A stretch of 63,795 nt of DNA, counting the filler, from Folioceros fuciformis (lineage: Eukaryota): NCBI GenBank assembly GCA_049999805.1. It is 5 parts of 4 records of this genome, joined end to end, with 100 filler letters (N's around TTAATTAATTAA, not from the genome) between each part and the next. Parts side by side here need not be neighbours in the genome. Positions count along the whole stretch, not along the records: positions 1 to 14,389 come from JBNGIO010006136.1; 4 more parts are not named here. One strand, written 5' to 3'. This document shows, piece by piece, positions 1 through 62,321 of this stretch. The notes below the pieces were generated by a model, which was given only the letters and a program-made list of their open reading frames with translations, was not told the DNA's origin and searched no databases. The position numbers were made by a program, and so were the translations under genes. Position 1 is the stretch's first letter. The number at the start of each line of letters is the position of its first letter.

Positions 1-149
1 GGGGACTTGTCTCCTAACAGCTTGAAGAAGAGCCACTCCAGAAGCGTGTACCGCTCCAGACCCGCGTACAGTAAAGACTGCGGAGGCACGGACGCTCGAG
101 GATAGTTCAGCACTACCAGCTTCTGCACCACCTCCTCCATCACGTCCAT
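1..149 (-). CDS. AUG7: AUGMIN subunit 7 (5' part; runs off the window)
   Basis: Minus strand from ATG at 149 reads [50 protein letters not shown], matching the plant AUG7 N-terminus as I recall it ([35 protein letters not shown]). Not in the ORF track. Confidence 0.88.
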
Positions 150-196
150 GGCAACAAAGCCTAACCCTAACACTTAATCAGAGAACCCGAATTGCA

Positions 197-1680
197 ATGT
201 CGAAGGCACCGACAGCCGCCGCCCTTCCGCTCCCTCGGTTGCTCCTGGATCGGAGATGGCTGCTCCCACATCCGCGTACGGACGTGCACTGCGTGTCCGT
301 CGCCCGCGATGCGCAAGAATGCCGCCTAGATGAGAATGCGAGCTCCGTAGATGGCGGCCGCTTCTATCTTGTCAGAGACGACCTGCTGCATCCGACCATG
401 GGAGGAAACAAACTGCGTAAGCTGGATGCCCTGATGCCTTCGCTCATGGCGGCAGGGGTGACCGATCTGGTGAGTGCCGCGCCGATTTCCTGCTACATCC
501 CGCGCCTGAACACATCCATCATGGCATCGTCGCATGCGGCAGGTCACCTGCGGAGGTTGCCAAAGCGCCCATACTGCAGCAGTAGGTGAGTGAGAAAGTG
601 AGCGAGGTCGTGTCTTATGTTGGCCTTGCCCTGCCCACTTGGACTTGCCATTGCACTTCTACGTGGCATTTGTGATGGCATCGCTTCCCTTGCTGCTGCA
701 GCCGTGGCGGCTGCTCAATCTGCTATCCGCGCTCACCTGCTGCTGCGAGGGGAGGCCCCAGCTGTTCCCACTGGCTACAATCTCGTGTCTGCCATGTTCG
801 GCAACATCACTTACATTCCAAGGTCAGAGTATGCTGACCGAGAAGCAATGCTGTCGAAGCATGCGGCTCGCGTGGCAGGTGCTACCGGCTCACTCGTGTG
901 CTTGGACGCAGCTGGAAGCCTCATCACTCCCCGCGACTCATCGGTAGGAAGCCAGAGAGTAGCGGTGGTCAAGGAGGGGGCTTCGGGACCTCTCGCAGCG
1001 CTCGGTCCGTGAGAGACATCCTTACGCCTGCTCTGCCCTTCCGTCTTCGTACAGACAAACACTGATTTATCTGCCTTGTTCCATATACGTGAATTGCAGG
1101 ACTCATTCGCCTTGTGGAGTACCTGAGCCAGCACTCACCAGCACTCCCTGGCAGTGAGCCTCTGCATCTGGTGGTGGATTGTGGCACAGGGACAACAGCC
1201 ATCGGGCTTGCGCTAGGCGTTGCTCTCTTCGGGCTTCCATGGCACATCGTGGGAGTGATGCTGGCGGGTACACCAGAGAGTTACAATGAGCACAAGCATT
1301 CGCTGCTGTCCGATTTCAACGAAATGTATCCAGGACTGACGCACCTGCAGCTGCCTATCACCTGGATACCACGGAACCAGCCGCGCAGGTTGGTACAACT
1401 GCTGAAACCGCTTCTGGTTTGTTTTTTAATATCTTTCCGTTTCGAACGCGCTACTGTTGCATCCAGCAGGTTCGGCAATGTGCTTCCAGGAGAGATCAAA
1501 GCATGCCAGCAGGTAGCACGGCAAACTGGAGTGCTGCTGGATCCGATCTACACATTGGCTGCTTGGGATGCCGCCGTTTCCTTATGTCTAGAGGGACGTA
1601 GCAAGGTGGCGGCTTTGCACACGGGGGGCACCATGGGGCTCTTCGGATTGGCTCAGAGATATCCCTCCCAATTCATTTAG
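197..1680 (+). CDS. DCD2: D-cysteine desulfhydrase 2 / ACC-deaminase-like PLP enzyme, 5 exons (197-469, 543-585, 702-1004, 1100-1388, 1470-1680)
   Basis: PLP-lysine motif RDDLLHPTMGGNKLRKLD; VTCGGCQSAHTAAV exon; DCGTGTTAIG; LDPIYTLAAW; LHTGGTMGLFGLAQRY. All four introns are GT-AG and keep the frame. Confidence 0.9.
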
Positions 1681-1857
1681 ACTAGGTCTTTTCACACCGT
1701 CAATAATAAAGCAAATGCCCAGGTTGCGGAGAGTTCCGGCCTGCCACTCACCTCATTACCAGCAGGGGATGACAATGTAGGAGGCCACCCAAGGCCAGCC
1801 ATGGCCTCGGTAGGCCGCGCCTCGGTTGCTCCTTGCTGAACTTCCGCACAGGGCGGC

Positions 1858-4353
1858 ATGTCGTGCGCGCTGTCATCTACCATGTGCTGCGCGTCTGCGT
1901 GCAGCCCGGCGGAGGCATTGCAGCCTCAAAGAGGCGACCGTGACGCCAGGCTGCTGCACGACTTGGCCACCTCTGACTCGCCGTTGGATCTCAAGCTCCA
2001 TTTCAGCGCCGATGGCCGCATGGACATGCCTGCTCTGCACGCCGCCTTCTCTGCGTTCACATCGAATGCAGATTTGGCCACGGTTGTGCAGCTCATGAAG
2101 AAGCTGCACGATTCGGGCTTGCCTGCATCCAAATTCGCCGGGCCCTGTACCACCAGGATGCTGGCCACGCAGCTTCAGGAAATGTTGCAGCAGGAGCAGC
2201 AAAAGCTGGTAGAGCAGCAGCAGCAGATTGCTGCGTGTGTGGACATGCTCACAGCGCTGTCGACATACGGATTCCGCGCTAAGCGTCTGGTTCCTCCGCC
2301 TCTCTTCATCCCCAGCTGCGCCGCAACAGGTGATGCCGCTCTCATGTTGCGCTACGCAGCTCTCCTGCCTCACGATGTGCGGCTTTTCAATGCTGTTATT
2401 GAAGCGTTTGCAGAGAGGGGTGACCTGGAGGCTGCTCTCTCTGTGTTGGCCTTGCTGCCTGCAGCGGGCTATGTCCCGGATATGTACACCTACCGAACTT
2501 TGGTGGACGCCTGTGCTCAGTGTGGCCGACCCGGCGTTGCACGGGATCTCTACCATAGCATGCTAGAGGCAGGGATGATACCTAACGTCTTCGTGTGCAA
2601 CAGTGTGTTGAATGCTAATGCCAAGGATTTACACCTGGTGCGAAGAATTTACAAGCAGATGCAGGAGAGCGGGGTGCAACCTGATCCCCCCACCTACCAT
2701 ATAATGCTCAAGGCATTCGCCTATGCTTCTTCTCATGAGCTGGTGCCCGATCTGTACGACGAGGTGGCCGGTCGCGTCACGAATGGGAGCCTGCAAATTG
2801 ATGTCTTCACGTACTCCAGGTTCATTCAGGCTTTCGGAGATGCCAAGATGTGGGAGTCGGCCATGAGGGTGAAGGATGACATGGTGGCAGCTGGGGTCAC
2901 TCTGAACCAGGTAACGTGGAATTGTTTAATCGGTGCCTGTGCAACATCAGGGCTGGGTGGTCAAGCTCTGCGTCTCCTCCATGACATGATCACAGCTGGC
3001 TGTCAGCCCAACACCGATACCTACAACATGGTGCTTCATGCTTTTGCTGAAGGAGGTCAACAAGAAACTGCATTCCAGTTGTTCGAGGAGTGGAAAAGGG
3101 ATGGCCCCTTCTCGTCCATCCTGACTGAAGAGTTTGGCAGCGGACCATTGGTGCAGAGCCTATCCAAGTTGGAAACTGAGAGTTGCAAACCTAATCTTGT
3201 GACATACAACACCATGATGAAAGCTTGCAGGAAGGCGCCCAAGGATGCACAGGCGCTCATGGACGAGATGAGATCCCTTGGCTTCATGCCAGACCAGAAG
3301 AGTTGGACTACCCTCCTCGATTCCCACGGAGCTACGGGGGATTTGGAAGGTGCTACCAGGGTTTTTGGTGAGATGGAGCGACTTGGGATTCCCCAGGATG
3401 TTGTCAGCTTCACGTCCATGATCAAGGCTTGCGTGTTAGCCAAGAATCCAGATAGAGCCTTTTCCTTCTTTGCGATGATGAAGGCCGCTGGTATCCGGCC
3501 CAATGTGGTGACGTACAACACTCTGTTCAGAGCCCAGCGTAAGTACGGACAGCTGAGCGAAGTGCGGCGCGCACTGGCCCTATATGAGGAAATGCGAGAT
3601 GCGGGGTTTGCACCTAAGGACCGCATCTTGAAGTCGCTTTTGGAAGAATGGGCAGAAGGCGCCCTGGGGAATGCAGCTACCAACTGGAGGAGCTCGTCAT
3701 GTGTTGCCTCCTCGGAGGCAGCTGATTTGAACGAGTACACTGAGCTGCTATTGCAAAAGGTGGCTGCACACGCTAGTTCTGTCGATCAGGGCAACAGCAT
3801 GACTATCGATCTGCGTGGTCTCTCCAGGGCCGAAGCTAGGCTTGCAGTCTTAGCTGTGTTGAGAATAGTGAAGGAAAAGCACTCTGCGACGACGCCTGTT
3901 ACCATGGATCTGGAGATCATCACCGGAGCCGGTAAGCAGACCCGTTCTGTCATCCAGGAGGCCGTCTTAGGCGTGTTGCAGGACGAGCTTGGACTCGCGG
4001 TCGTGTTAGTAGACAGTAGGAAACGCACCGGCCAACAAAAGGAGCCGGCGGACGACACTGCTTCCTCCCGGACGCCTCTATTAAAAACTGCCGTGTATCC
4101 GGATGCCACCACCGCTGAACCAGGAGCCACCGCCAATGGGGAAGGAGCGGCCATGAGGTGGAGTAGGCAACAAGTCAAGGTGGTGGCCAGAAGACCTGTC
4201 AACTCAGGTAGATTAATGGTTCCCAAGGATTCTCTCAATGCGTGGTTGCAAAAGGGCAGATGGAAGTCCGAAACAAACAGAAAAGGACAGCAGGACTTTG
4301 ATTCCATTACAAACATTCGGCAACAGTCAGCAGTGGAAGAACTGGTGACGTAG
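1858..4353 (+). CDS. P-class pentatricopeptide repeat protein with C-terminal SMR domain (PPR-SMR, At5g02830-like), intronless
   Basis: 831-aa ORF with many 35-aa PPR motifs (PDMYTYRTLVDACA, PNLVTYNTMMKAC, PNVVTYNTLFRA) followed by the SMR signature IDLRGLSRAEARLAVLAVL...LEIITGAGK. Confidence 0.9.
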   Translation: MSCALSSTMCCASACSPAEALQPQRGDRDARLLHDLATSDSPLDLKLHFSADGRMDMPALHAAFSAFTSNADLATVVQLMKKLHDSGLPASKFAGPCTTRMLATQLQEMLQQEQQKLVEQQQQIAACVDMLTALSTYGFRAKRLVPPPLFIPSCAATGDAALMLRYAALLPHDVRLFNAVIEAFAERGDLEAALSVLALLPAAGYVPDMYTYRTLVDACAQCGRPGVARDLYHSMLEAGMIPNVFVCNSVLNANAKDLHLVRRIYKQMQESGVQPDPPTYHIMLKAFAYASSHELVPDLYDEVAGRVTNGSLQIDVFTYSRFIQAFGDAKMWESAMRVKDDMVAAGVTLNQVTWNCLIGACATSGLGGQALRLLHDMITAGCQPNTDTYNMVLHAFAEGGQQETAFQLFEEWKRDGPFSSILTEEFGSGPLVQSLSKLETESCKPNLVTYNTMMKACRKAPKDAQALMDEMRSLGFMPDQKSWTTLLDSHGATGDLEGATRVFGEMERLGIPQDVVSFTSMIKACVLAKNPDRAFSFFAMMKAAGIRPNVVTYNTLFRAQRKYGQLSEVRRALALYEEMRDAGFAPKDRILKSLLEEWAEGALGNAATNWRSSSCVASSEAADLNEYTELLLQKVAAHASSVDQGNSMTIDLRGLSRAEARLAVLAVLRIVKEKHSATTPVTMDLEIITGAGKQTRSVIQEAVLGVLQDELGLAVVLVDSRKRTGQQKEPADDTASSRTPLLKTAVYPDATTAEPGATANGEGAAMRWSRQQVKVVARRPVNSGRLMVPKDSLNAWLQKGRWKSETNRKGQQDFDSITNIRQQSAVEELVT

Positions 4354-5076
4354 TCGGATATGAGCATCCAAAGCTTCCTGGAAATAGCCCCAGAAAATGG
4401 ATTGGAAAGGTTGGTGGCTTCTGCACTGCGGTACTGCACTCGAAATCCTCTCACTGTCGTTGCGTGTGAGCTAGCTAATCGGGACTTACGGGGGGCGCTT
4501 CCGCAGAGATCTGTGAGCCATCTGCAGTAACTTCCGCGGTGCTTCTGTTTGGAAGAACACGATCAGTGAGCTGGTCAAAGGAAACAGGAAGCGAAGTTGA
4601 AGTGGAAGGCACGGATGCGCAGGACCACCAACAATCCTCCACCTCTGCCCATGTGGCTTGTCCTCCAGGTGCACAGCGGTGGTCACTCCACGCCCTTGGT
4701 AACTGGGCAAGGTGCATTCATGTACACACGGACAACTTGGCGTGCTACCTAAAGTCTCGCTCACTGTTTATTGGCCGAATTTCGGACACCTGTGACGACA
4801 CGAAACCCACCCATGTACATACACAGTCGGACTCGTGTGGGTCGAAAGCTAGGGTGGAAGAACCAACGACGACGGCTACAGTGTCATGGCCCAGAATATT
4901 CGCGGTCTCTCTCCACTTTCGTATCGGTCTGTCCTCCCTTGAAACTCGTGGGTTTGATGGCCCGCAGAAGTATTGTTTCCCTTCGTTGCTTCAACCCACG
5001 TCACCTGCACGTTGGGGCGGAGTTGAGATCACTTTAAGAAGCCTCCAATCCTCCCTGAACTCGGAGACTGCACAAG

Positions 5077-8000
5077 ATGGTGCTCATTTCTGAAATGCGA
5101 GTTGTCATGCCCATGACAGGTATTGCAGCACCCGCTTTGCCTGCCGCCTTGTTCTACTTGAATACCTGACTCTGAATCCTACGTGCTTTGTCCACAGTGG
5201 AGGAATTCAGGAGAGCACAGCGCTACGCTAATTGGAAGACGAATGAGTACAACACTCAAGAGGGGCAAGGAGGTCAGGTTGGTGAACGCGTCCAGCCAAT
5301 TGTCTGAATCACAATGCCTTGACGTCAAATGCAGCCAGGCACTCCACGGTTACGCAACATTTATACAGGCTACTGTGTTTAATGCAGCTGCTCTCAAGTG
5401 CACCTTACGTCCATGAAACGTGGGGTGAGGGGTTGTATACACACAGTCTTTACCGCTTGGATGATCGCCTACCGGATTGGGTATGAGGCTTAACGGCTAC
5501 CCTCGCAAACTCGTTTATAAATCCTCAATGTATTCAGCATTTGCTCTGCTTGGTGCCTTGCTTTCAGGTCACACGTCTCATCCCATTGAATGCCCTTGTC
5601 ATTGATGAGAAAACATGGATGGCTTACCCGTATTGTCGTTCATTGCTAACCATCCCCTTCTTTAACAAGGTTCGTGCACTTCAGCCTTTTGACTTCTGTA
5701 ATCGACGAGCAAGTTAAGGCAATGACGTTGGCTGGTTATGTGCAGATGCAAATCGAGATGCTCAGCATACACAAGGATGATGATGGTTCAACTGACAATG
5801 CTCTTGGGCTCAATGAAAATCAACTTCGTATTCGAAAAGTTGACTTTGTCGATATTCATGCAGACAAGGTGGTCATTTTCTCATTTGTGCGTGTGTTTAG
5901 CAGCAAACGAGGGGACAATGCCACGGGTTGTCAAATTCATGTGCCACAAACAGTTCAGCCCTCTGGACTTTCTGCTCCTTGCTTCACATCAGACGGCCCA
6001 TCCCTTGGCATTGCTGCAGGTGGCAAAGAGGGACTATCGTGCCGACCTTGATCCTGCCCTGACCAAGTCCAAGAAAACAGGGTAGGCTATGTCTCGTGTC
6101 CTTCTTGTCTTTTTTTCTATTTGTTCCATAGATGTTGCTGCTACTCGTGTGTGGCCTAAGCGTTTTCCTTCTCAGGCGCGGACCTCTTTCCAGTGGCTGG
6201 CAGACAACCCTGAGGCCCATTATGTGTGCGTACAAAGTGACCACCGTTCAGGCCAAGTAGGTAACATGGTATAACTCACCTCAGACCTGGGCTTGTCAGA
6301 CCACAAGCTGCCTCGTAAGATATTTTGCATCCAAAGGTGGTGACGGTCCTGCTGTGCTGTGAAGATCCTGGCGTGGTTGGACTTCAATAACTGTATTATC
6401 ACTGATTGGACATTTTCAAATATCCTTTCTGGTGACGTAGTTGTGTGTGTGCAGCTATTGGGGAGTGCAGAACCGTGCAGAGAAGCTTATGCTCAATGGT
6501 GTCAGGCAGGTAGTTTTGATCTTCAGCTCCTTCTACGTTATTTGCATGCCTACAAAGCTCTACACCTCAGGTACATCTATAACATCAAAAGCGTTCTCCT
6601 GGCAGATTGTGTTACTTACACACCGAAATGCCTTTTGCTACATGGATAGCTGGTATGACCTAACATATGAAGAGGTATTCACATTTGAAGGGGATACGAT
6701 GCTGCTGTTCGCAAACCCTTGCAGCATGACTTTCAGCTCACATGTTTTTTTTGCAGATTTGTGCAATAGAACTTCGAGGACGCGAAAGGCTGAAAGCTTT
6801 AGTGAAGCAACCGAGAGTTATTGATCCATCGACGGGGAAGGAGCTAGTTGTTCCTGACTCGTCAAAAGTTCTGAGTGATGATAGTGATGACAGTGACATC
6901 GAAGTGGAATTTTTCGAAGCTGAGGTGCGAACACAGAACCTTAAGGAAGTAGGGCCGAAGTCTGAACTTTCAATTAGTAACTGTCAAGCCCTGGATCTTG
7001 CATTCAGATGGATTGGGCGACACAGGAAGATGAAGATTTTGTGAAGGGCCTCATGGATGGTAAGCAAACAGATTGGTGCAAAGCTTGCAAGTTGTCCTTG
7101 ATAGTATATAACTGACACAGATATTGTACAGGTTTGGAAGTTGGAGATAGTTTGAAGGACGTCTCAAGTTCCCATGTACCCGAGAGGTATCATTTTTGCT
7201 GCTGTGATGTGCTTCATTAGTTTTCTCCAGACGTCACGAGGAGCTCAAATAAGACAAGCCTTACCTGTCCAGATGTGCAGTATGTGTATCCCGAGGAAAG
7301 AATGCTGCGGCTCCTGAGATGCTGTGCCAAACTTGTGGAGAGCACTTTTGCAGCACCTGCTTTTCTGATGTCAGAAACCCTTCCTAGTTTCACAACTCAG
7401 ATTGTTCATTCCAGTTCATTGACAGCGATTGATTGGCAGATTATTATTTCATTTTCCTAAATATGTCGACATAATTTTGCTGACCCCTCTGGGTTTCTCG
7501 TCTTGATCACAGATGCACATAACATCTCGCCTGAGGTCTCATGTGACAAAACTTCTTGCTCCACCGTCTCAGATAAGCCTAACAGTGGCTACCTCCGATT
7601 TGCATGGGGAATCAGCAAGCATCATGACAGACAATCTCGTGCATTCCATAGCTCTACCGGATAATCAAAACGAAAACTCTGATGCAATTGTTGAAACACG
7701 TGTCTACGCTCGACTGGATATTCAACAGGTATGAATTTGTAAAATCTATACTACTATCACTCTTTGGACTCTACCGGATAATCAAAACGATAACTCTGAT
7801 GCAATTGTTGAATCACGTGTCAACGCTCGACTGGATATTCAACAGGTATGAATTTGTATAGTCTATACTACTATCACTCTTTGGACTTATCATCCCAGCA
7901 TCTTGAGGTCCTTGTGCTAGCGTCATGTTGCACGATCATTCAGCTCCAATGAGATACTGTTGGCTGTGCTGCAGGCTGAGGCAGCTGCGAATCCTGAAAG

Positions 8001-9792
8001 TCCTCATAGTGAACATGGAAAACGACCTTTTCGGCAGAGGAATAGAAACAAAAGTGGACTCCGTGGTCTGAACACTTGGCCTGATAATGCAGAAACTCAT
8101 GAGGTTAGCTACTGTTTTTATCTTCAGTTCTTTCTCTTGAGACGTGCAAATCTTGTGGCTCTCTTGACTGGGAGTTGATGATGGGACAACAGGGTGGAGG
8201 AGCAGAGACCTTGTCAAGAAATTTAGATGCAGGTCAAGCATGCCAGCTGTCTGAGGACATGGTTCGCTGCATTTCCAGCTTGTACATGCGGTGCGCAGAG
8301 TCTCGATTGTCTTCTTGTGCTTCTCCTGTGAAACGGAAACTGTGGAGACGTTCTTTTGGCGAAGTATCACCTCCTCCAGACTCGCATGGTGATAGCAGAG
8401 GAGATGAAGGCAGCATCGATCCGTACGGAACAAAAAGTGAACATGCTCTTTGGAGTGTAGATGTCTATTTGGATGTTGTAGAGGTCACCTCTGCCCCTGT
8501 GGAAGACAAGCTCGATGATGCTGCTGCCCTATACAAGCAATACAGGTTTGCTTTCTACTGTATGAATTGACCTTTGTTCATTTGAGCTTGGGCTGATCAC
8601 GTTCAAACATTGGTTGCACCGTGTTCTGTGCATGGCCCCCCGTTGTGCCTCCTCATTTCTTGGGGAATTCTCAGGTTGAAGTCTTACCTATTACCGGACT
8701 GCAGGGGACTTGTTGCACAACTAGCGCATGTGAATCCCAAGGAGATGACACACGAGCAGCGCTTGGCCTTTTGGATCAACGTGTACAATTCTTTGATGAT
8801 GCATGTAAGGTTCTTCCTTGCTCAGTGACTTCTGTTTTAGTCAATTACGGGCGTGCATGTTTAGTCAATCACGGGCGTTGTGACTGCAAGGATGTAGTTT
8901 GCAAACTGAGTTGTCTGATGCATACAGAGTTATCTTGTCTATGGAATTCCACGTAGTCACTACAAGAGAATAAGCATGATGAGCAAGGTACGTACGATGC
9001 CTGTAAGTTCTCTCTCATGTGCTGCCAACGTTGTAATTGTGAATTGGTTATGGTCTTCTCTGACAGGCGGCCTACGACTTGGGGGGTTATCACTTCAGTG
9101 CATTAGCCATAGAACATGCTATACTGCGTGCAAACTCGTATCGCCCTGCCCTGGTATGTCCTGGACAGTCCAAGCAATGGCAACTGATAGATTCAGGCGC
9201 ATTTGCTTGTGGGAGCAATTGCATTGTCATAGTGGTCAAATCTGTTGTCAACGCACAGGCAACTCTACTACCAGTTCAGAGATACAAACGAAACGATGAG
9301 AGACTGCCATTTGCTCTTGATCGACCGGAGCCCTTGTTGAGCTTCGCTCTTTGTTGTGGCAGCCGTTCGTCACCTATGGTAAGCATTAGCATTTCCAACG
9401 TGATTTGTTCGATTTGGTGGATGAGTTTGCACAGGTGCCGAACTTGATATTGGTGAGTTCGATGTCAGGTACGAGCCTTCACACCCGCGACAATCGGAGA
9501 AGATTTGCGGGTGGCATGTCAAGAGTTCTTGGTTGCTGCAATCTCAGTCAACAGTAAGCTTCAGCGGATTTTTGTACCCAAGATTCTGCACTGGTACGCG
9601 AGGGACTTCTCGGACGATGCCAAGTCTTTGCTGGAATGGATCAGTCAACAGTTGCCCGAAGATAAACGGAATTTGGTGATTGAGTGCCTTCAGCAGAAAA
9701 CTGCGAAGAGAAAATCTCGACGCATGTCGGTGACCTCGTATGACTGGAGCTTCAGATATCTATTTGATCGTCGCTTGGGTCTGAAGCCCTAG
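5077..9792 (+). CDS. Multidomain protein: START-like PITP (IP_trans) + FFAT-like motif + B-box zinc finger + DUF547; 21 exons, ~822 aa
   Basis: Exons 5077-5119, 5198-5277, 5388-5480, 5568-5669, 5746-5868, 6020-6081, 6176-6256, 6455-6509, 6606-6674, 6757-6924, 7008-7059, 7132-7186, 7273-7369, 7513-7728, 7975-8103, 8193-8545, 8705-8804, 8928-8987, 9067-9153, 9259-9378, 9469-9792 sum to 2469 nt, all GT-AG and in frame. PITP motifs: GLYTHSLY, EKTWMAYPYCRS, KTGRGPL, MCAYK, YWGVQNRAE, HRNAFCYMDSWYDLT. DUF547 motifs: LSEDMVRCI, LAFWINVYNSLMMH, PEPLLSFALCCGSRSSP, PKILHWYARDF, YDWSFRYLF. Confidence 0.82.
7652..7885. repeat. Tandem duplication of 117 bp covering the 3' end of exon 14 and its splice donor
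   Basis: ctctaccggataatcaaaacg...caacaggtatgaatttgt...tcactctttgga occurs at 7652-7768 and again at 7769-7885 with a few substitutions. Confidence 0.9.
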
Positions 9793-10301
9793 AAGATAGC
9801 GAGTTGCGTGAGTATCTGATAGACAAGAGAAATTGTATTCAAGATTCACAGTTTCGTGTGAATGTATGTAAAGGCCTAGGAACACAATGCCTTGGGCCGA
9901 GCCACTTTTGCAGCTAGTTTACACCATGTGCTTAGCCTTTGCCCGCGTTTCTTGTTCCAGAAGCTGTTGGTGACGAGTGGCCGTTGCGCGCGCCAAATAT
10001 GAAGTTACGCAACGCTGAACGTGACATGGCCCTGGACCCCGGCGCCAATTGGCACCCGGGTCCGTCCTCCTTCGTCCTACCCAGTGCACCCTGCAAATGC
10101 TAGGCGAAAATCACGAATTGCTCAGCGACGCCAGTAGGGGCTGGCCGCCACGACAGCAATTGCATCCGACGCTGAGCTCCCAACACCTGCTGCAACGGCG
10201 GCAGCACCTGTGAGTGCCGCACGGTCCAAGTGAAGCACCAACGCTTGAGTACGGCACACCAAGAACAGGAACTGCGGCAGCTGCATTCTGCGACTAGGCA
10301 G

Positions 10302-12229
10302 ATGAAGCAAAGGCATCCCACCGTGGCTCGTGCTTTGCGCAAGCTGTTTATTCCTACCCGACTGTGTCAGGCCGTCAGCGCAACAGTTTTCCGATGGATT
10401 TCTCCGCTCGTCTTGATGTCGGCACTCTTCCTGTTGTGGAGCGACACAGCTGGTGTGACTGCCTCTCTCCCTACCTACTGCTTCACTTTGTCAAGACTTG
10501 TATCGTGATGCATTGCCTGACAAAATGTGACATGCGGCGGTAATTCCGCAGCTTGGTCATCTTCCTTGCTCACATTGAACTATCTCTGTCGTGCAGCAGT
10601 CGCCAACAGGCCGACTCGGCACGAAGCGCTTGCTCCACCTGGATCTACTCCTAACCCTGTCCATAGTATGTACTCGGGAGACTCCAGCTTGCATTACGCT
10701 CTGCTACGGTCAAAGGATTGGTGGAAGTCGCAATAGCACCTTGCGGCGCTAACTTGTGGTGACATTAGTTTCTAGCGACTTGACTAGCCATGCTCGCTTC
10801 TCCGTTGTTTGGGTGCAGGATGCAAGATCCCTTTGCTTCATGATCCCCGTGAGGTGAAGTTGAGGTCGTCAGCCTACTACGATGGGACTTATCCTGAAAA
10901 GCTGACCTATGTCGAGCATGATGAACCAAGTTCGGACAATGTATCGCTATTTGGTGACCATCAGACGTGGAAAGAGAGGGACGACAGCTTCAATTTGAAA
11001 AAGTCCATGAAGGTTACCGTCCTCCTCCTTTCCATTCTGCATCAACATCTTGATCGTTTGGTCTCATTTTGCTCGCTGATCCCGGTTCCGAGCTCTGTCA
11101 GAGGGATCCTAGTACTGACGTAAACCACGGCTATTGGTATCAGGTTCACTGTGGATTTGGTGGAAAGTCGGGAGTTGATATGCATGTATGGGACACCAAG
11201 TACATCCAAAACTGCCAGTACGTGGTTGCATCTGGCATATTCGATGCCTATGACCTACCACATCAACCATCGAAGATAAGCAGCCGCTCCAAGCGTCTCT
11301 TTTGCTTTGTATTGCTTGTTGACGAGCAGTCTCTGCAAAGCATCACAAACGCCAGCGGGGTGATAGAGACCTCAGACAAAGGAAAGTGGGCTGGAATTTG
11401 GAGGCTTGTCGTACTTCGCAACTTGCCCTACGACGAGCCAAGAAGAAATGGAAAAGTGCCCAAGCTGCTGGCACACAGAATTTTTCCTGATGCCCGGTAC
11501 AGCATCTGGATTGACGGGAAAATGGAGCTCCTTGTGGACCCTCTGCTTATTCTCGAAAGGTAAAGTAAGCTGCGTTGAGGTTTTCCAGGCTCCTTGCCTT
11601 TGTCAGTCACTGCAACTGTCAGTGAGCTGTGACGTCGCAGGTATCTGTGGAGGAAGAACATTACATTTGCGATAGCCCATCACAAGCATAGCAGGAGCAT
11701 TTTCGAGGAAGCGGAAGCTGTGAAACGCCGAAAGAGATACGCTCGTCCTCTCATTGACAGGCACATGGCCATATATCGGGAGGAAGGCATGAAAGAGTGG
11801 ACCACTGACAAATTGCCGCTTATAAGTGGTGAGCAAATGATCAAGTTGGCTGGTTGTGTCAATGGTTGTGAGGCATGCTGACCGATGCCTGAGTGGGTCG
11901 CAGACGTGCCTGAGGGAGCGATAATCATTCGACAGCACACCCCGCTGAATAATCTGTTCTGTTGCCTGTGGTTCAACGAAGTGGACCGGTTTACTCCTCG
12001 GGACCAGCTGAGCTTTGGCTACGTGGTATTCAGGCTCAATGGGTCTTTCCCGTTCTTCATGTTTCCCAACTGTGAGTATAACTCTCTTACACGCTTGCAC
12101 AAGCACACTCGAGAACACTCCTCCAAGGTTGAATGGGTTAAAAGCTTGGACCAGCTTGGTAACAGCAGCGGCGTGCTGGAGACTAGAGCAGGGCTAGGCC
12201 TTTTCACTCGAAACATCTCGGAGGGTTGA
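10302..12229 (+). CDS. DUF616 family protein (MUCI70/TOD1-like putative glycosyltransferase/ceramidase), 6 exons (10302-10452, 10597-10665, 10819-11012, 11144-11559, 11641-11828, 11904-12229)
   Basis: N-terminal hydrophobic anchor; VHCGF, VVASGIFDAYD, LPYDEPRRNGKVPKLLAHRIFPDARYSIWIDGK, DVPEGAIIIRQHTPLNNLFCCLWFNEVDRFTPRDQLSF. Confidence 0.88.
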
Positions 12230-12860
12230 GCCCACCCCTGACTAGACCTTGAAATTTAGACTGAGTACGCGGGAATTCAGTTGAGAATCAGAGACGGAAG
12301 GCAACTTTCATTTTCCAACTCAAAGCTTCACAACGCATGTGAAGCTCATCGCGAGCTCTGTCTGCGGTGACACGTCGACCAGGACATCAACTGTGGCTCC
12401 ACGGATGCCGCCGTGGTGATGGGCAACTTGTTCTCCTCGATCCTACCCACATGGTCAGTACGCAAGCACGCACCTGCTGCCTGCAGCAGCCAGGTTTGGC
12501 CAGGAAGGAGCAAAGAGAAAGCCACTGAGACTTGCATACTTGTGACGGGATGGATACACCAAGAGAAATTACGTAGAAGACTGTCCTTGCTTCCACCCGA
12601 GTAGGGCAGAAAGTTGAACTGTAAGTCCAGCTTCACCTGTCACCATGTTGGTGAACTTGTCGGCCTCCAGTTACAAGGATCGAGAAATTTGTCTCACTTA
12701 CCCAACTGTCAATGAGCAGAACGTCGGAGTAAATGGTGAACTTCAAACACATCCCGCCATGCAAGAGGGGGAGGAGTTGTGTGTGACGCATCGACAATCG
12801 GTTCCCGACCCGCACGAGAAAAAGGTTGTCTGCTAACAAAGGTGTCTGTTACAAGAAGCT

Positions 12861-14389
12861 TCAGAAGTCTTCGCAAGACAAGTCCATGGCAAATTCTGAA
12901 TCCACATAATGAACGTGCTGAGGCATATCGTTTCTCGGTTCACATTTGGATGCATAGGCAACAACCTGCCACGGGTTCAGCCCGCTGTGCACCAATCCTT
13001 CCTCCACTATCTCTGTGTGGAAGTTGGGCTTCTTGGCAAGTTCTTTAACTCCTTGCCGCGTCAGGTAGCAAGCTTGTATCCAGACGAGCCTCAATCGCTC
13101 ATGCTTGGCCAGCGCAACCATACCTGGCCAGCCAAGCAACACATGGTAACGGCATGGGAGTGAGCCAGAAATGGTATTTTACTGTGTGTCATATCATTGT
13201 GTGAGGAAGGAGAGCTGGACACGGTACCTTCGTCTCCAAAAGGGCAATCCCGCATCTCAAGAGTGTGCATTTTGTCCAAGCCCGCACTTGCCGCAATAAG
13301 TCCTTTGTCACTGCCCCCGCAGTTGGTGAGCGTGACATGTTGCAAGTTCTTACCATACTTTCCCAGATAATACATGCCTTGGTCAGTGATGATTTTGTTG
13401 CGAAAGCCGTATCTGCTGAGGCAGATGGCCAGCCTGGTGGCCATGTTGCACCTTTTCAACAAAGCTTTGAGCCCCTTGTTCAGTGTCTTGTTGCGGTGCA
13501 GTTCGATAGGCTAAGCCACACACACAGGGCAAGCAATGCCGTCAATCGGACAGACTGTGTCACGACTCAAGCAAAATGACGCGTGAGGCCTCATCCATGC
13601 AGACACACTTACGCGACCGTCCGGGGACTCCTTTTGCACAAGGCAGATGCGGATGTCTCGTAGGCTTGGGCAATTTTGCGCTAACACCATGAGAGCCTCG
13701 TCTGTCATATCTGACGCATAGTACATGATTTTTTGCAGCAAGGAGCAGCCGTGTGCGATGTACAGCAGTCCGATGTGAGACAGAAATCCAGGGCCATCCT
13801 CTTGCTGAATAGATAGTGTCCGTAAATCTTTGCACGTGGTCCCCACGACTCGCATTCCAGCGTCTCCGATAATGTCACGCACCTGTGAAACACAGCACCT
13901 CCAGGAGGTGAGAAAGAGGAGGACTTCGAAGCATAATTTTGCGAGGCCTGCCTGCTACGTTACATGCAAAGCCTGCTGAGCAATCTGAGAAAGGGTAGGT
14001 AGGGCGGGCCGGGCCGGGCCCGGGCCGGGCGGTCCGAGGATGTCACCTTAAGCTCTTGCAGCTTAATACATCCAGCGAGCATCTGACACAGTCCCTCTCC
14101 TTCAATGTCAGCAAGAGTCAAGTCGAGTCTCCTGAGCTGCGGACAGATGGGAAGGACGCCCGGAATCAGCCACTCTTCCCAGTAGCCCGAAAGCTCCGAC
14201 AGCCTGGTACATCGTACAAGAGCCTGGCGCAGCTGGGTAGTGAGGGGGTGAGCGTAGGGTGGGAAATTGAACAAGTCCAACACCCCCAGGCCCAGGTGGG
14301 TTACAATGGGGCAGGAGGTCACCACGGCAGCAATGACCGTGGACGGCTCCAAAGCATCCGACAGCCGGAGCACTCGACAGCGAGCAGCC
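12861..14389 (-). CDS. TIR1/AFB/COI1-family F-box LRR protein, 3' part (5' end lost in gap); exons <14389-14047, 13882-13613, 13510-13228, 13123-12861
   Basis: LRR motifs typical of this family: RDIIGDAGMRVVGTTCKDLRTL, NCPSLRDIRIC, ITDQGMYYLGKYGKNL, LEMRDCPFGDEG, PWQVVAYAS..EPRNDMP. Confidence 0.85.
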
Positions 14390-14489
14390 NNNNNNNNNNN
14401 NNNNNNNNNNNNNNNNNNNNNNNNNNNNNNNNNTTAATTAATTAANNNNNNNNNNNNNNNNNNNNNNNNNNNNNNNNNNNNNNNNNNNN
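14390..14489. other. Artificial contig-join linker (Ns + TTAATTAATTAA + Ns)
   Basis: 12-mer with stops in all six frames at 14434-14445, padded with Ns to about 100 bp; the same structure recurs three more times. Confidence 0.95.
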
Positions 14490-58240: not shown

Positions 58241-61200
58241 TAGTCACCATTTATGAGCAAAAGGCCCCATATTTTGAATGTATACATTGTCATTGACAAG
58301 ATCAAGTAAACCTTTGCTTGACCATCAATGGTGAGGTTATGTTTAGAGTCTATCTCCTTATGGGCAAAATGGACAATAGTAGTTGATTTTGTAGGAAATG
58401 AGCCCTAGGCATTGAAAAGGCATTTGTGTGAAATGTGGGAGCAGATATTGGTTGCCACCATAGGTTTTCATGAAAGTTTTCCTAGTAGCTTCATGGGTGA
58501 CAATTGCCTCTGTGAAAGTAGAAAAAAGACTCTAAATCACTCTTTTACATGGATTAGATAAATAATCTCTTGTCCCATGTCATCTGAAAAAATGAGGAGG
58601 AACAAACTGAAGACGAACATAGGCCAAAAGGAAGATTAGGACTACTAGCTAGTGCAAGGATATCGTAATTTGAGATAACAAAAGGCCTACCTCCCACCGG
58701 TGTCAAAGAAGGTGCCAAACTTGCACTTGTTGTCATATATCAACCGCATTGGCAAGCACACATTGTAAAGTGATAAGCAAGCACTCTTTGAAAAGGGATA
58801 AGGAGATTTAGACACATGGTCCAAAGCAAGGAGATGCATTGTTGAAAGAAGGCTAATAACAAAGGAAGGATGAGATCTCATTCATGTGGTTGTGATTTGC
58901 TTTTGTGCACTCACTCCTTGATAAGCCTCAAAAAGTCTTACCCATGGCCCTATGGGCTTCAAGAGCAATGAGGATGAAAATATGGTTGTCCTGCTGCAAA
59001 TGAGAGTACTTGTGAACCTTACATGTTGTGCATGGCTCCATTGCCCAATAGGATTGATAATTATATGTTCAAAGATTCATTTACTATTAGGATCTGGGAC
59101 AACTATATTAGTATCACAATCTTACTTTCCCATGGCGAGCAACACCATTTCTGGTGATGCATTGTTCTCTACTGAGATAGTGTGCTTAATACAACTTGGA
59201 GTCGTAAATGGCAATCCCATAACTACATATAGGGAGAGAAAAAGGCAAAGAATGCATCAACCCCAAGCGGAATCTCATTTGTGCTCGCAAAAGATGTTGA
59301 TTTTGTTTAGAACATTGAAATGCAAGGTTGATGTTGTTTAGAACATTGAAATGCAAGGCTAACTAGACGACCTTTCGCCCTTTCTGAAATAAGAGAGGAT
59401 ACGAGCCCGAGAGAACTTGAGGATGGATGAGTCCAAGAGGAGGCATGTATGTGCGTGAGCATATTTCTCTTGTTGAAAAGAGGCATTAAGACCCCTCATA
59501 CCTCTCATGGAGAAAGAAGGGAATGGAGGCATGAACTCCTAAGCCTCCAAAGGTAAAGGAGTCCGTAGCTTCATGAAAGACACTTGCAAGAGAATAACCT
59601 CCTCCTTACAATACAAGATGAAGGCCTCATGAAGGGGAGAATCATGGATTGGAAATTTAAAGACCAAAGTTAGTGTTTAGTTGTGGGTCTAGTTGACAAG
59701 GAAGACTGCTAAGGCCAAGGCCTTTATGTGCAAACAAGTGCTCTTAAAGGTGATTGGCAAGGTTGCCTACTTTTGAGCTACATGACTAGTAGCACATTTA
59801 AAGGTGTTGAGACCTATGATGTTTCAAGCCCTTACATAACTTGGTTGTCAAAACTCATCATACTTGAAAGAAAAGCCAGAGATGGAGCAATAGTTCTAGT
59901 TAAGTAACTTAGCCAAGGCACAAAGTAAGAAGAAGAATGCCAAACACGATTTGAGGATCTATGGTCTAGGTGGAGAGGTTCTCAATGTCAACTAAGTCTT
60001 TTTCCAAGGTTACATCCAAAAACCCAAAGCAATAGTCCTAGTTAAGGAACCCAAAGCAATAGTCCTAGTTAAGGAACCCAAAGTAAGCTTCTCCAAAGTT
60101 AGTAGCTTTCTAGCCACAAGACATAAGAAATCCAATAGGAACCTCGCCCTTAGGCTACATTTACTGCTAATGTAAAACACTCTAAAAATGCACTTAAAGG
60201 TGTCTTTAGAGAAAACAAATTACGGTGAGGCTCCTAAACCTCTGAAGAAAAGTTGCAAGGTACTAGAGATAGCCTGACCAAAGTCCAACCTCTTGAAATA
60301 AAAAAAATGCTCCTTCACCATAAGCTTAAGAAGGTTATCATGAGGTGTTGGGTGGAAAGCTCAAAGTACAAGAAGACAAGCATCAAGGGCTTTTAGCATT
60401 TTCATCCTCTCAAACTATTAGTCAGAAAATTGTTTCTTTATAAATGTTTCATGCTTGGTCAAATTATAGCCATTCTTATTTAATTTTTAATATATGAAAA
60501 TACATCGTACAAAATCAACCCTAACCCTAAAAGCACATATTACGACCATAAAAATTGAAATCAAAGCTTCCAAATGGCTTAAGGTAAATGCACATGCATT
60601 TAAAAGAACATAATTGTTAACTTTGTCATGCTTCTATCAATATGCAAATATTGTGCCTTTAGGTGACTCACTTTATTGAGATAATAATTTTGGCACATGT
60701 AGGAGCTAGCTCCTTTATTCTTAGCCCTCCTTGGTTCATGGTACATCAATCTTTCTATCTCTTCCTCTTAATAAAATCTTTATCTCATCATAATAATTGA
60801 TATATATATATATATATAGTTTGGTAAATTATTATTTTTTGTTTTTTTTCCCCTTAATCCAATGTGTAAGGATCTTGGAAAAGGTTTAGATATAATTTAT
60901 GAATTTTTTTTTCATTTGGAAAATATTATAGTTAACATAAGTGGTTTCAAGCAAACTAGTTATAATACTGTAATTTCTTTTTTACTTTAATCTTAAAAGT
61001 TCCTTCTTTATTTTTCCCTACCTATTTGACATGTAATCTTAAAGTAATAAATAAAGTTCATACCCACGATATTACTCCAATTCAATTGATTAATAAGATA
61101 TTTACAAATATTTTGATATTAAAAAATTAGATATATTATTATTTATTTTTTTAAACACACATTTTATTTTGTTTATTTGTGTGGACGAATATCTTGGTCA

Positions 61201-62321
61201 TGGATTGATTGATGAAGGATTTACAAGAAAAGTAAACAATTCTTAAATTATGGCCAATAAAATTTGGCCATCATGATAGAACTTGTTTTTGAATAACTCT
61301 TAACAATAAAGCCCAGACTATGAGTAGCAAGGGCATAATTGCCTCTAGGTTGGCCATTTAAGAACCTATCTAAGGGTAAGATGTCTACAACACCAAGGAC
61401 TTAGACAATTCAAGAATGGTGTTATCCTACTATGTTAAAAGATGAAAAAATTCCATTGACAAGAATAGGGTTGTGTAAATCACATTGCATTTGCTGAAGT
61501 TCAATTTGTTCATGTCTTTGAAGCGTTCATGTAACCAACTTATCATCTATTCCTAGGGCATCTACTCTTTCAAGGTGTTGGTCTACTATATCAATACAAT
61601 TTAATCAACTTGATAGAGTGGTTAAGGAATCATATCAACTTAAGTATCTTATTTGAAAAGCCTAGTGAAACTTATGTTGTATCAAATTTCGTATCATCAA
61701 AATGACGGTAAGAAATGAGAACCTATCAAGAACCTTGGGGACAAGCACAACATAGAGGTGTATTCAAGTTGCAAGCTATCATTGGAAATGAATTAGAGGA
61801 ATTAGATTCTCTAAAGTATGTTGATGAGAAGCATAGAATAGCATATTATCTTGTAGAATGCACAACACATAGCCTTGTTGAACTGAACTCACATCATTCA
61901 CAATAAACATAACACTCAAGATATCAACTATACCTAAATCAACTAGGCACACGTGTTAGTATGATAGGATGCGTGGAACATCTATTTCAAAATGAGATTA
62001 TCTTGCCCAAATCAACTACAGCAAGGCAAACAAAAAAACCTTTGATGGGTGGAACCATGATGATGAAGTAACTAATAAACGGCAATGCATGATGTGAAGT
62101 AGATGTTCGTCAGCAAAAATTTTGAAATAGAACAATTGTGGTTAGCTAAGCTTGTTACGTTGTGGGCACATATTAGGCTCATGGGGTTCGAGTATGAGGA
62201 GTGTAGGGTGTGGATGTGTGAGTTGCATGTAGAGGTGGGTTTGATGGGTTCCGAGTGTGAGAGGTGATGGTTTGCGGGATATGGATTTGTGAGTTGCATG
62301 TATAGGTGGGTTTGATGGGTT

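Follow-up and report, generated by a model that had tools for sequence, protein, structure and literature searches.

The question raised by positions 5077-9792 of the Folioceros fuciformis DNA analysed here is whether this locus encodes a single protein, in which a START-like phosphatidylinositol transfer protein (PITP) domain is joined to a DUF547 module, and what such a protein might do. The window, i.e., the whole stretch of DNA that was analysed, comprises 63,795 nucleotides, filler included, and consists of five parts of four records of assembly GCA_049999805.1; the locus lies in the first part (positions 1-14,389, from JBNGIO010006136.1). It was found to carry a 21-exon gene whose encoded product is an 822-aa soluble multidomain protein containing a PITP domain, an FFAT-like motif, a B-box-type zinc finger, and a DUF547 module. 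As regards gene model and domain architecture by themselves, it is highly probable that this is a genuine land-plant gene. The whole explanation, a transcribed fusion gene whose product would dock on VAP and carry or sense lipid at membrane contacts, is held with about even confidence.

Gene model and transcript evidence

The model was rebuilt on the plus strand, to which all features of the gene belong, and was identical to that of an earlier note on this DNA, which had claimed 21 GT-AG-bounded exons in one open frame. The joined exons comprise 2469 nt, corresponding to 822 codons and a terminal stop, and this final codon is the sole stop in their translation. Exons 1-7 are located at positions 5077-5119, 5198-5277, 5388-5480, 5568-5669, 5746-5868, 6020-6081, and 6176-6256; exons 8-14 at 6455-6509, 6606-6674, 6757-6924, 7008-7059, 7132-7186, 7273-7369, and 7513-7728; and exons 15-21 at 7975-8103, 8193-8545, 8705-8804, 8928-8987, 9067-9153, 9259-9378, and 9469-9792. 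All 20 introns are of the GT..AG type with sizes from 72 to 246 nt, and an in-frame TGA (5056-5058) shuts the reading frame 21 nt 5' of the ATG. In addition to the GT-AG model, the whole coding region (5077..9792) is supported by an end-to-end alignment with orthologues and by the removal of 19 of its 20 introns in assembled contigs.

These contigs come from the public run X1, which is listed as 'RNA? (a guess)', no matching run being recorded as RNA; X1 was taken as RNA-derived because its contigs are without 19 of the 20 introns. The run contains 0.49 of the sampled words from 5077-9792, and exons make up 0.52 of that stretch. All six X1 contigs placed on 4700-10300 matched at ≥99% identity, and no letter differences were listed. 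They show 15 GT..AG skips of listed position, at introns 5, 6, and 8-20, and four further joints without one. Since the bin depths over 5074-5821 match, within 0.03, those of a depth-14.9 contig composed of exons 1-5 minus introns 1-4, the four unlisted joints are most simply introns 1-4. The exception is intron 7 (6257..6454), which is considered below together with the other points that bear on the proposed function.

Record 1 of X1 fits exons 1-5. Record 3 (2348 nt, depth 52) extends from exon 6 to exon 21 and on to position 9912, with skips at introns 6 and 8-20; it covers 9468-9912 and thus includes at least 120 nt of the 3' untranslated region (UTR; 9793..9912). Because this one contig links exon 6 to the 3' UTR, the PITP and DUF547 halves belong to one transcript, as the earlier note had proposed, and the orthologue alignment, which extends from end to end, agrees with this. 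All three junctions which that note had singled out for checking (7186/7273, 7369/7513, and 7728/7975) are present in the contig as GT..AG skips, and the acceptor at 7230, through which it had considered a truncated transcript ending after the PITP part, is not the one used, the contig joining at 7273 instead.

The same evidence bears on the reading that two separate genes, one PITP-only and one DUF547, have been wrongly joined through open frames. This reading can point to the linker exons 12, 14, and 15, which are weakly conserved (17-20% mean identity), and has no supporting point of weight; it is opposed by the single contig over exons 6-21 with exact joints at the three junctions, by the unused acceptor at 7230, by a zinc finger interrupted by intron 13, and by the identical fusion in independent gene models from at least nine named genera. 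It is almost certainly wrong.

A 117-nt tandem duplication (7652..7887, 2.0 copies, 95% match) spans the border of exon 14 and intron 14. Its first copy comprises the last 77 nt of exon 14 with the donor, and its second copy lies entirely within intron 14 and forms a decoy donor. This second donor, at 7845, was ruled out, since the contig joint is 7728/7975 and uses the first donor; the alternative acceptor at 7230 was likewise ruled out by the joint at 7273.

Record 1 also extends approximately 2.9 kb upstream of 4700, across a frame for a pentatricopeptide repeat (PPR)-SMR protein and a 720-nt spacer into exons 1-5, which is not proof of one transcript.

Domain architecture and distribution of the fused family

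The domain order expected in the earlier note, PITP, FFAT-like motif, B-box, and DUF547, was borne out by a combination of profile, pattern, and alignment evidence. For the profile part, ten exons were translated individually and scanned against Pfam. The PITP domain (IP_trans, PF02121) occupies approximately aa 1-250, encoded by exons 1-10 (5077..6798). Against a cut-off of 21.3 bits, exon 3 matched IP_trans with 16.5 bits (E 0.0067, profile positions 42-71), exon 4 with 26.2 bits (E 7.3e-6, 73-104), and exon 5 with 27.7 bits (E 2.5e-6, 108-147), and the three matches are collinear on the profile. Nothing significant was obtained in this single-exon scan for exons 10, 14, 16, and 21. An orthologue (P0001) matched IP_trans with E 5.6e-79 and 265.7 bits.

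About 40 residues past the PITP domain, a conserved acidic tract is followed by an FFAT-like core. In the window protein, the acidic/Ser tract (aa 275-286) and the residues E-F-F-E-A-E (aa 287-292) are encoded at 6871..6924 in exon 10, and exon 11 opens with the codon of the seventh core residue, M293 (7008-7010). The FFAT core consensus is E-F-F-D-A-x-E, with which the core E-F-F-E-A-E-M (aa 287-293) agrees at positions 1, 2, 3, and 5. The core columns E, F, E, and A are invariant in 12 fused proteins. Nine of the 12 residues just upstream of the window core are D, E, S, or T, and the flanks of the 14 fused proteins that match the pattern contain from 7 to 10 acidic/Ser/Thr residues of 12. 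Of 16 fused proteins, 14 contain the loose core pattern a single time, at the aligned site, and the remaining two have V-F-Y-E-A and R-F-Y-E-A there. The same pattern was found in none of 11 PITP-only paralogues and in all nine RdgB-like proteins, whose core is E-[FY]-F-D-[AC].

Intron 13 divides the B-box-type finger into six Cys ligands in exon 13 (aa 329-360, 7274..7369) and two His ligands at the start of exon 14 (aa 361-370, 7513..7542). Its ligand pattern over aa 329-370 is C-x2-C-x13-C-x2-C-x4-C-x2-C-x4-H-x7-H, and all eight zinc ligands are invariant in the alignment of 12 fused proteins. Exon 13 by itself matched ANCHR-like_BBOX with E 3.9e-4 and 20.9 bits, under the 27-bit cut-off; the orthologues scored from 20.5 to 26.7 bits against the ANCHR-like B-box (PF22586; PF00643) with the same cut-off, the window finger having been scored as exon 13 only. 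The joint 7369/7513 that completes the finger is unambiguous in the X1 contig ('both' = 0), so that the finger does link the two halves of the gene, as the note had argued.

The C-terminal DUF547 module comprises aa ~493-822 (exons 16-21, 8244..9789). Its N-terminal helix (Q-L-S-E-D-M-V-R-C) is accompanied by a disordered loop and a D-P-Y-G motif, and the Pfam core by a C-terminal extension. Exon 17 matched DUF547 (PF04784) with 34.6 bits (profile positions 1-23) and exon 20 with 27.1 bits (73-103), the cut-off being 27 bits, and the orthologues reached 94-129 bits. Columns invariant across 45 DUF547 proteins were found, including polar residues in the blocks F-W-I-N-x-Y-N and I-E-H. The equivalent 339 aa of the Marchantia orthologue were modelled as one unit (predicted local distance difference test, pLDDT, 85.1; predicted template modelling score, pTM, 0.86), and the N-terminal helix, well outside the 125-residue Pfam core, had a pLDDT of 93-96.

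Of eight long DUF547 proteins scanned with Pfam, five carried DUF547 only and three carried it with Lzipper-MIP1. The closest relatives of the module are such Lzipper-MIP1 + DUF547 proteins, e.g., AT2G23700 'UCHIGAWA', which bears out the note's statement that plant DUF547 pairs with a MIP1 zipper. They share with the fused family a homologous C-terminus of approximately 330 aa, including the P-N-x-L-S-E-E-x-V-R helix, the D-P-Y motif, the DUF547 core, and the C-terminal Y-D-x-x-F-R-Y, with 31-40% identity to the Marchantia module. Their N-terminal half is a coiled-coil zipper, whereas that of the fused family consists of the PITP domain, FFAT-like motif, and B-box.

Ten proteins from mosses and liverworts, 761-875 aa long, align with residues 1-816/818 of the 822 of the spliced product (45-51% identity, E = 0). 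With exon 21 alone as a query among longer proteins only, two matches were obtained, from Sphagnum compactum (830 aa) and Spirogloea (645 aa), each with PF02121 as well as PF04784. When the Sphagnum protein served as query, 69 proteins were obtained, 13 of them with both domains: Sphagnum (2), Ceratodon (2), Physcomitrium (3), Marchantia, Calypogeia, Riccia (2), Spirogloea, and P0013, a Logan-derived row whose cluster also contains Physcomitrium proteins. Precomputed PF22586 was present in 10 of these 13. In an exhaustive search of 50%-identity representatives, 3967 matches were found at E ≤ 0.001; a Pfam scan of ten top representatives, mostly multi-stretch, detected both domains in five, namely three clusters of Closterium, Chlorokybus atmophyticus, and one metagenome contig. 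No named fused protein from vascular plants appeared in these searches, which is an impression only, as most representatives are nameless. The best match to the window protein in the collections was a 370-aa fragment (66% identity), the window protein itself being absent from both. Mean identity to nine orthologues was 55-88% over exons 1-10 and 47-69% over exons 17-21, as against the poorly conserved linker exons.

Judged by these alignments, the window gene is an orthologue of the fused proteins of bryophytes and streptophyte algae, with which it shares domain order, similar length, the FFAT-like core, the zinc-ligand spacing, and two replacements in the PITP pocket (at K61 and N90, described below). 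Examples are Marchantia polymorpha MPTK2_7g02200 (P0008), Physcomitrium patens LOC112279243 (P0222), Ceratodon KC19_1G296900 (P0003), and Chlorokybus Chrsp77S07688 (P0072); the identity of the window protein to the fused bryophyte proteins is 45-51% and to the Chlorokybus protein 36%. On the same sequence evidence, the family is conserved from Chlorokybus via Zygnematophyceae to mosses and liverworts.

The earlier note had considered the architecture undescribed. For the literature this holds: no paper on fused PITP-DUF547 proteins was found, and in the literature searched, 'DUF547' is mentioned in 28 papers but never in a title or abstract, no co-mention of DUF547 and 'phosphatidylinositol transfer protein' was found, and four orthologue locus names are not mentioned. 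For the databases it does not hold, since PF02121 with PF04784, mostly with PF22586, is annotated in at least nine named genera. The PF02121 + PF04784 architecture is thus annotated as hypothetical, widespread in non-vascular streptophytes, and unstudied, and the claim of novelty, which the note itself had made dependent on the architecture not being already annotated and widespread, is only half right.

Head-group pocket and comparison with RdgB/Nir2

An orthologue aligned with the PITP-alpha structure 1t27 (E 5.3e-48) without gaps over residues 1-103, and the rat residue numbering therefore applies. According to a review on PITPs, T59, K61, E86, and N90 contact the inositol ring, the loss of any one of them abolishes the binding of phosphatidylinositol (PI) and not that of phosphatidylcholine, and the set is 'a hallmark that is predictive of PI binding'. 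These positions were compared across 43 aligned PITP domains. The 29 non-fused ones comprise 11 PITP-only proteins (~470-560 aa; nine named as moss or liverwort), nine named animal proteins (seven RdgB/PITPNM-type, one cytoplasmic PITP, and one C. elegans protein), and nine short PITPs.

The window protein has T, S, E, and M at the four positions and hence lacks the PI-binding hallmark. K61 is replaced in all 13 fused rows that cover the site, by S (11), T (1), or A (1), and N90 in 13 of 14, by M (10) or otherwise by I, A, or V, while among the non-fused PITPs K61 is kept in 29/29 and N90 in 28/29. T59 and E86 are retained in the fused family, and the tip of its membrane-insertion loop is Y-W, as in the RdgB rows. 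By the four-residue hallmark, the window protein is thus a member of the PITP fold family outside the functional class of PI-binding PITPs. Since K61 and N90 are replaced family-wide, the cargo is probably not phosphatidylinositol bound in the canonical manner.

A quick maximum-likelihood tree was computed for 46 PITP domains; in it, the fused proteins (10 rows) formed one group with a Shimodaira-Hasegawa-like approximate likelihood ratio test (SH-aLRT) support of 96. The RdgB proteins (8 rows, SH-aLRT 100) and the bryophyte PITP-only proteins (SH-aLRT 99) formed two further groups, both apart from it. The PITP domain of the window protein adjoins those of liverworts (support 90, below starring), and its highest identity, 71%, is to a liverwort protein.

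The PITP-only proteins of mosses and liverworts (~470-560 aa; e.g., P0014, P0016, and P0017) share the PITP domain with the fused family and occur in the same organisms. They differ from it in keeping T59, K61, E86, and N90 in 11 of 11, in the absence of the FFAT-like motif from the same 11, in having no DUF547, and in their separate clade.

As a side observation, the proteins P0014-P0029 make up a second PITP family of mosses and liverworts, in which all four inositol-binding residues are kept and no FFAT-like motif is present.

With RdgB-alpha/Nir2 (PITPNM1, class IIA), the fused proteins share an N-terminal PITP domain, behind which lie an acidic tract and then an FFAT core. Reviews describe Nir2/RdgB-alpha as acting where the endoplasmic reticulum (ER) contacts the plasma membrane (PM), via FFAT-VAP docking, and attribute to it a large C-terminal non-transfer module thought to target the second membrane. 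In the fused proteins the C-terminus consists of the B-box and DUF547; in RdgB/Nir2 it consists of DDHD, a beta-sandwich, and LNS2. PF02862, PF24694, and PF24695 were absent from the fused proteins scanned and all present in the animal PITPNM matches. By their C-terminal domains and by phylogeny, the fused proteins therefore fall outside the RdgB/Nir2 family.

The analogy with RdgB/Nir2 drawn in the earlier note stands in part. The order of PITP, acidic tract, and FFAT-like core is common to both, and the replacement of K61 and N90 and the separation of the clade from RdgB speak against it. A true equivalent, i.e., an exchanger of PI and phosphatidic acid at ER-PM contacts in which the B-box and DUF547 replace DDHD/LNS2, would agree with this shared order (9/9 RdgB-like and 14/16 fused proteins) and with the retained T59, E86, and Y-W loop tip. 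Such an equivalent is nevertheless quite unlikely: any single mutation of the four residues is reported in the review to abolish PI binding, two of them are replaced in the fused family (N90 in 13 of 14), and the fused clade does not group with RdgB. Because they keep all four residues, the bryophyte PITP-only paralogues (11/11) are the better candidates for PI transfer. The product of the fused gene, by comparison, would follow the same logic as Nir2 with probably a different cargo, because the canonical PI-binding hallmark is missing.

Proposed contact-site role, its weighing, and its meaning

The explanation that we favour may be set out as follows. The FFAT-like motif would dock the protein on ER-resident VAP27, VAP27 homologues being present in plants according to reviews. 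The DUF547 module, possibly together with the B-box, would attach to a partner or to another membrane, with the plasma membrane as the most plausible place. Between both membranes, the PITP-fold domain would then carry or sense a phospholipid, in a layout parallel to that of RdgB/Nir2.

The same domains may be read differently, with the PITP fold as a lipid sensor that regulates a signalling or transcription-cofactor function of the B-box and DUF547 in the cytosol or nucleus, and not as a carrier at contact sites. Most plant B-box proteins regulate transcription. The head-group pocket is divergent, the closest DUF547 relatives bear the leucine zipper of 'ternary complex factor MIP1', and DUF547 also occurs with glutaredoxin (GRX) and DEP signalling domains, as indicated in a 2026 review, which still calls it a domain of unknown function. 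This sensor function would leave the strictly conserved acidic tract and FFAT-like core without an obvious role. Moreover, the one DUF547 protein localised so far is found at the plasma membrane: a 2026 preprint describes polar plasma-membrane localisation of Arabidopsis AT2G23700 (MIP1 zipper and DUF547), which has no transmembrane helix or lipidation motif. A purely cytosolic or nuclear sensor is therefore regarded as unlikely.

Several observations weigh against the contact-site carrier or sensor favoured here. The putative VAP docking is predicted from the motif, in whose core E takes the place of D at position 4 and M that of E at position 7. A full-length AlphaFold model of the Marchantia orthologue (P0008, 14 rows) was poor overall (mean pLDDT 51.1, pTM 0.42), with pLDDT below 50 at residues 220-325, so that the exposure of the motif is not readable from it. 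As the fused PITP clade is separate from RdgB, the PITP-then-FFAT layout may be convergent. For the DUF547 module, a Foldseek search of the PDB returned nothing at E ≤ 0.001 (best E 0.21, template modelling score 0.15), VIA-align against 48,161 chains gave at best a de novo design with Z 6.4, within the stated noise range, and the protein atlas gave no usable match after the exclusion of DUF547 clusters. Since no solved structural relative was found, the putative targeting role of DUF547 comes from one preprint on a paralogous family, whose text does not map the membrane-binding part of AT2G23700.

To these points intron 7 (6257..6454, 198 nt) is to be added, as it is retained in the only X1 contig covering it. 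Record 3 is contiguous over the piece 6175-6504, intron 7 included, and the depth of the bin 6196-6382 is 52, against 17 expected if the intron were spliced, which fits retention. Retention leads to an in-frame TAG (6258-6260) after codon 195 and to a 195-aa product. The spliced joint 6256/6455 was not seen in the X1 contigs, which cannot show the absence of a variant.

If such retention prevailed, the gene would mainly be expressed as an intron-7-retaining transcript, giving the 195-aa product or a target of nonsense-mediated decay, with the full-length form minor or conditional. That the sole contig across 6175-6504 is unspliced, with a depth in agreement, speaks for this, as does the occurrence of intron 5, too, in retained and spliced forms. 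However, contigs drop variants, the splice sites of intron 7 look normal (donor CAA|GTAGGT, acceptor ...GTGCAG|C), and the frame, the eight zinc ligands, and the invariant residues of DUF547 are preserved in the 14 downstream exons, which implies selection on the full-length product. Predominance of the truncated form is accordingly very unlikely. Splicing at 6256/6455 is needed for the stretch ...A-N-Y-W-G-V-Q-N-R..., which is conserved in all orthologues. Because the splice restores this stretch, all 14 downstream exons keep the frame and conserved residues, and contigs cannot show absence, intron 7 is taken as a real intron that is removed inefficiently or conditionally.

At intron 5 (5869-6019), X1 holds both an unspliced piece (record 2, 5843-6047, depth 20.2) and the spliced joint (depth 22.5), so that retention is not limited to intron 7.

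In the surrounding sequence, an intronless frame of 837 codons (1840-4353, plus strand) specifies a PPR protein that is similar to At5g02830 and has an Smr domain at its C-terminus; its best named matches are from liverworts (41-46%), with angiosperms at 38-40%. By these identities, the source is a land plant without a close relative among the named entries, presumably a hornwort. Open frames at 26-1680 (plus strand), apparently of several exons, are presumed to encode a pyridoxal phosphate (PLP)-dependent D-cysteine desulfhydrase or a protein of the 1-aminocyclopropane-1-carboxylate (ACC)-deaminase type. Multi-exon open frames at ~10790-12230 (plus strand) are taken by us to be DUF616/hexosyltransferase-like, and those at ~13090-14430 (minus strand) presumably belong to a leucine-rich-repeat F-box-type protein; these three names are unconfirmed. 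A run of N lies near 14390-14440, and the G+C content falls to 0.31 within 60001-62000, compared with 0.45-0.58 in the rest of the window.

Flowering-plant lipid-transfer biology is centred on Sec14-type PITPs. Non-vascular streptophytes keep a START-like PITP joined, as in animal RdgB/Nir2, to an FFAT-like, putatively ER-docking motif, with a different partner module, and, with two inositol-contact residues lost throughout the family, a different cargo is predicted. It is possible, though less likely than not, that this is an ancient streptophyte contact-site lipid-transfer system in which DUF547 would recognise the plasma membrane or a lipid in it, the S61/M90 pocket would hold a non-PI lipid, and the FFAT-like motif would provide the tie to VAP27. 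If this were true, DUF547 would gain a first function, and its recurrence beside PTEN, DEP, and PITP domains would be explained; Entamoeba PTEN homologues are depicted with a DUF547 domain in a published figure. Since the fusion is already in databases, its value is that of a hypothesis and not of a discovery. The fusion provides a testable hint for the function of DUF547, and the family may serve, not as a new kind of system, but as a usable source of hypotheses for DUF547 and for plant contact-site biology.

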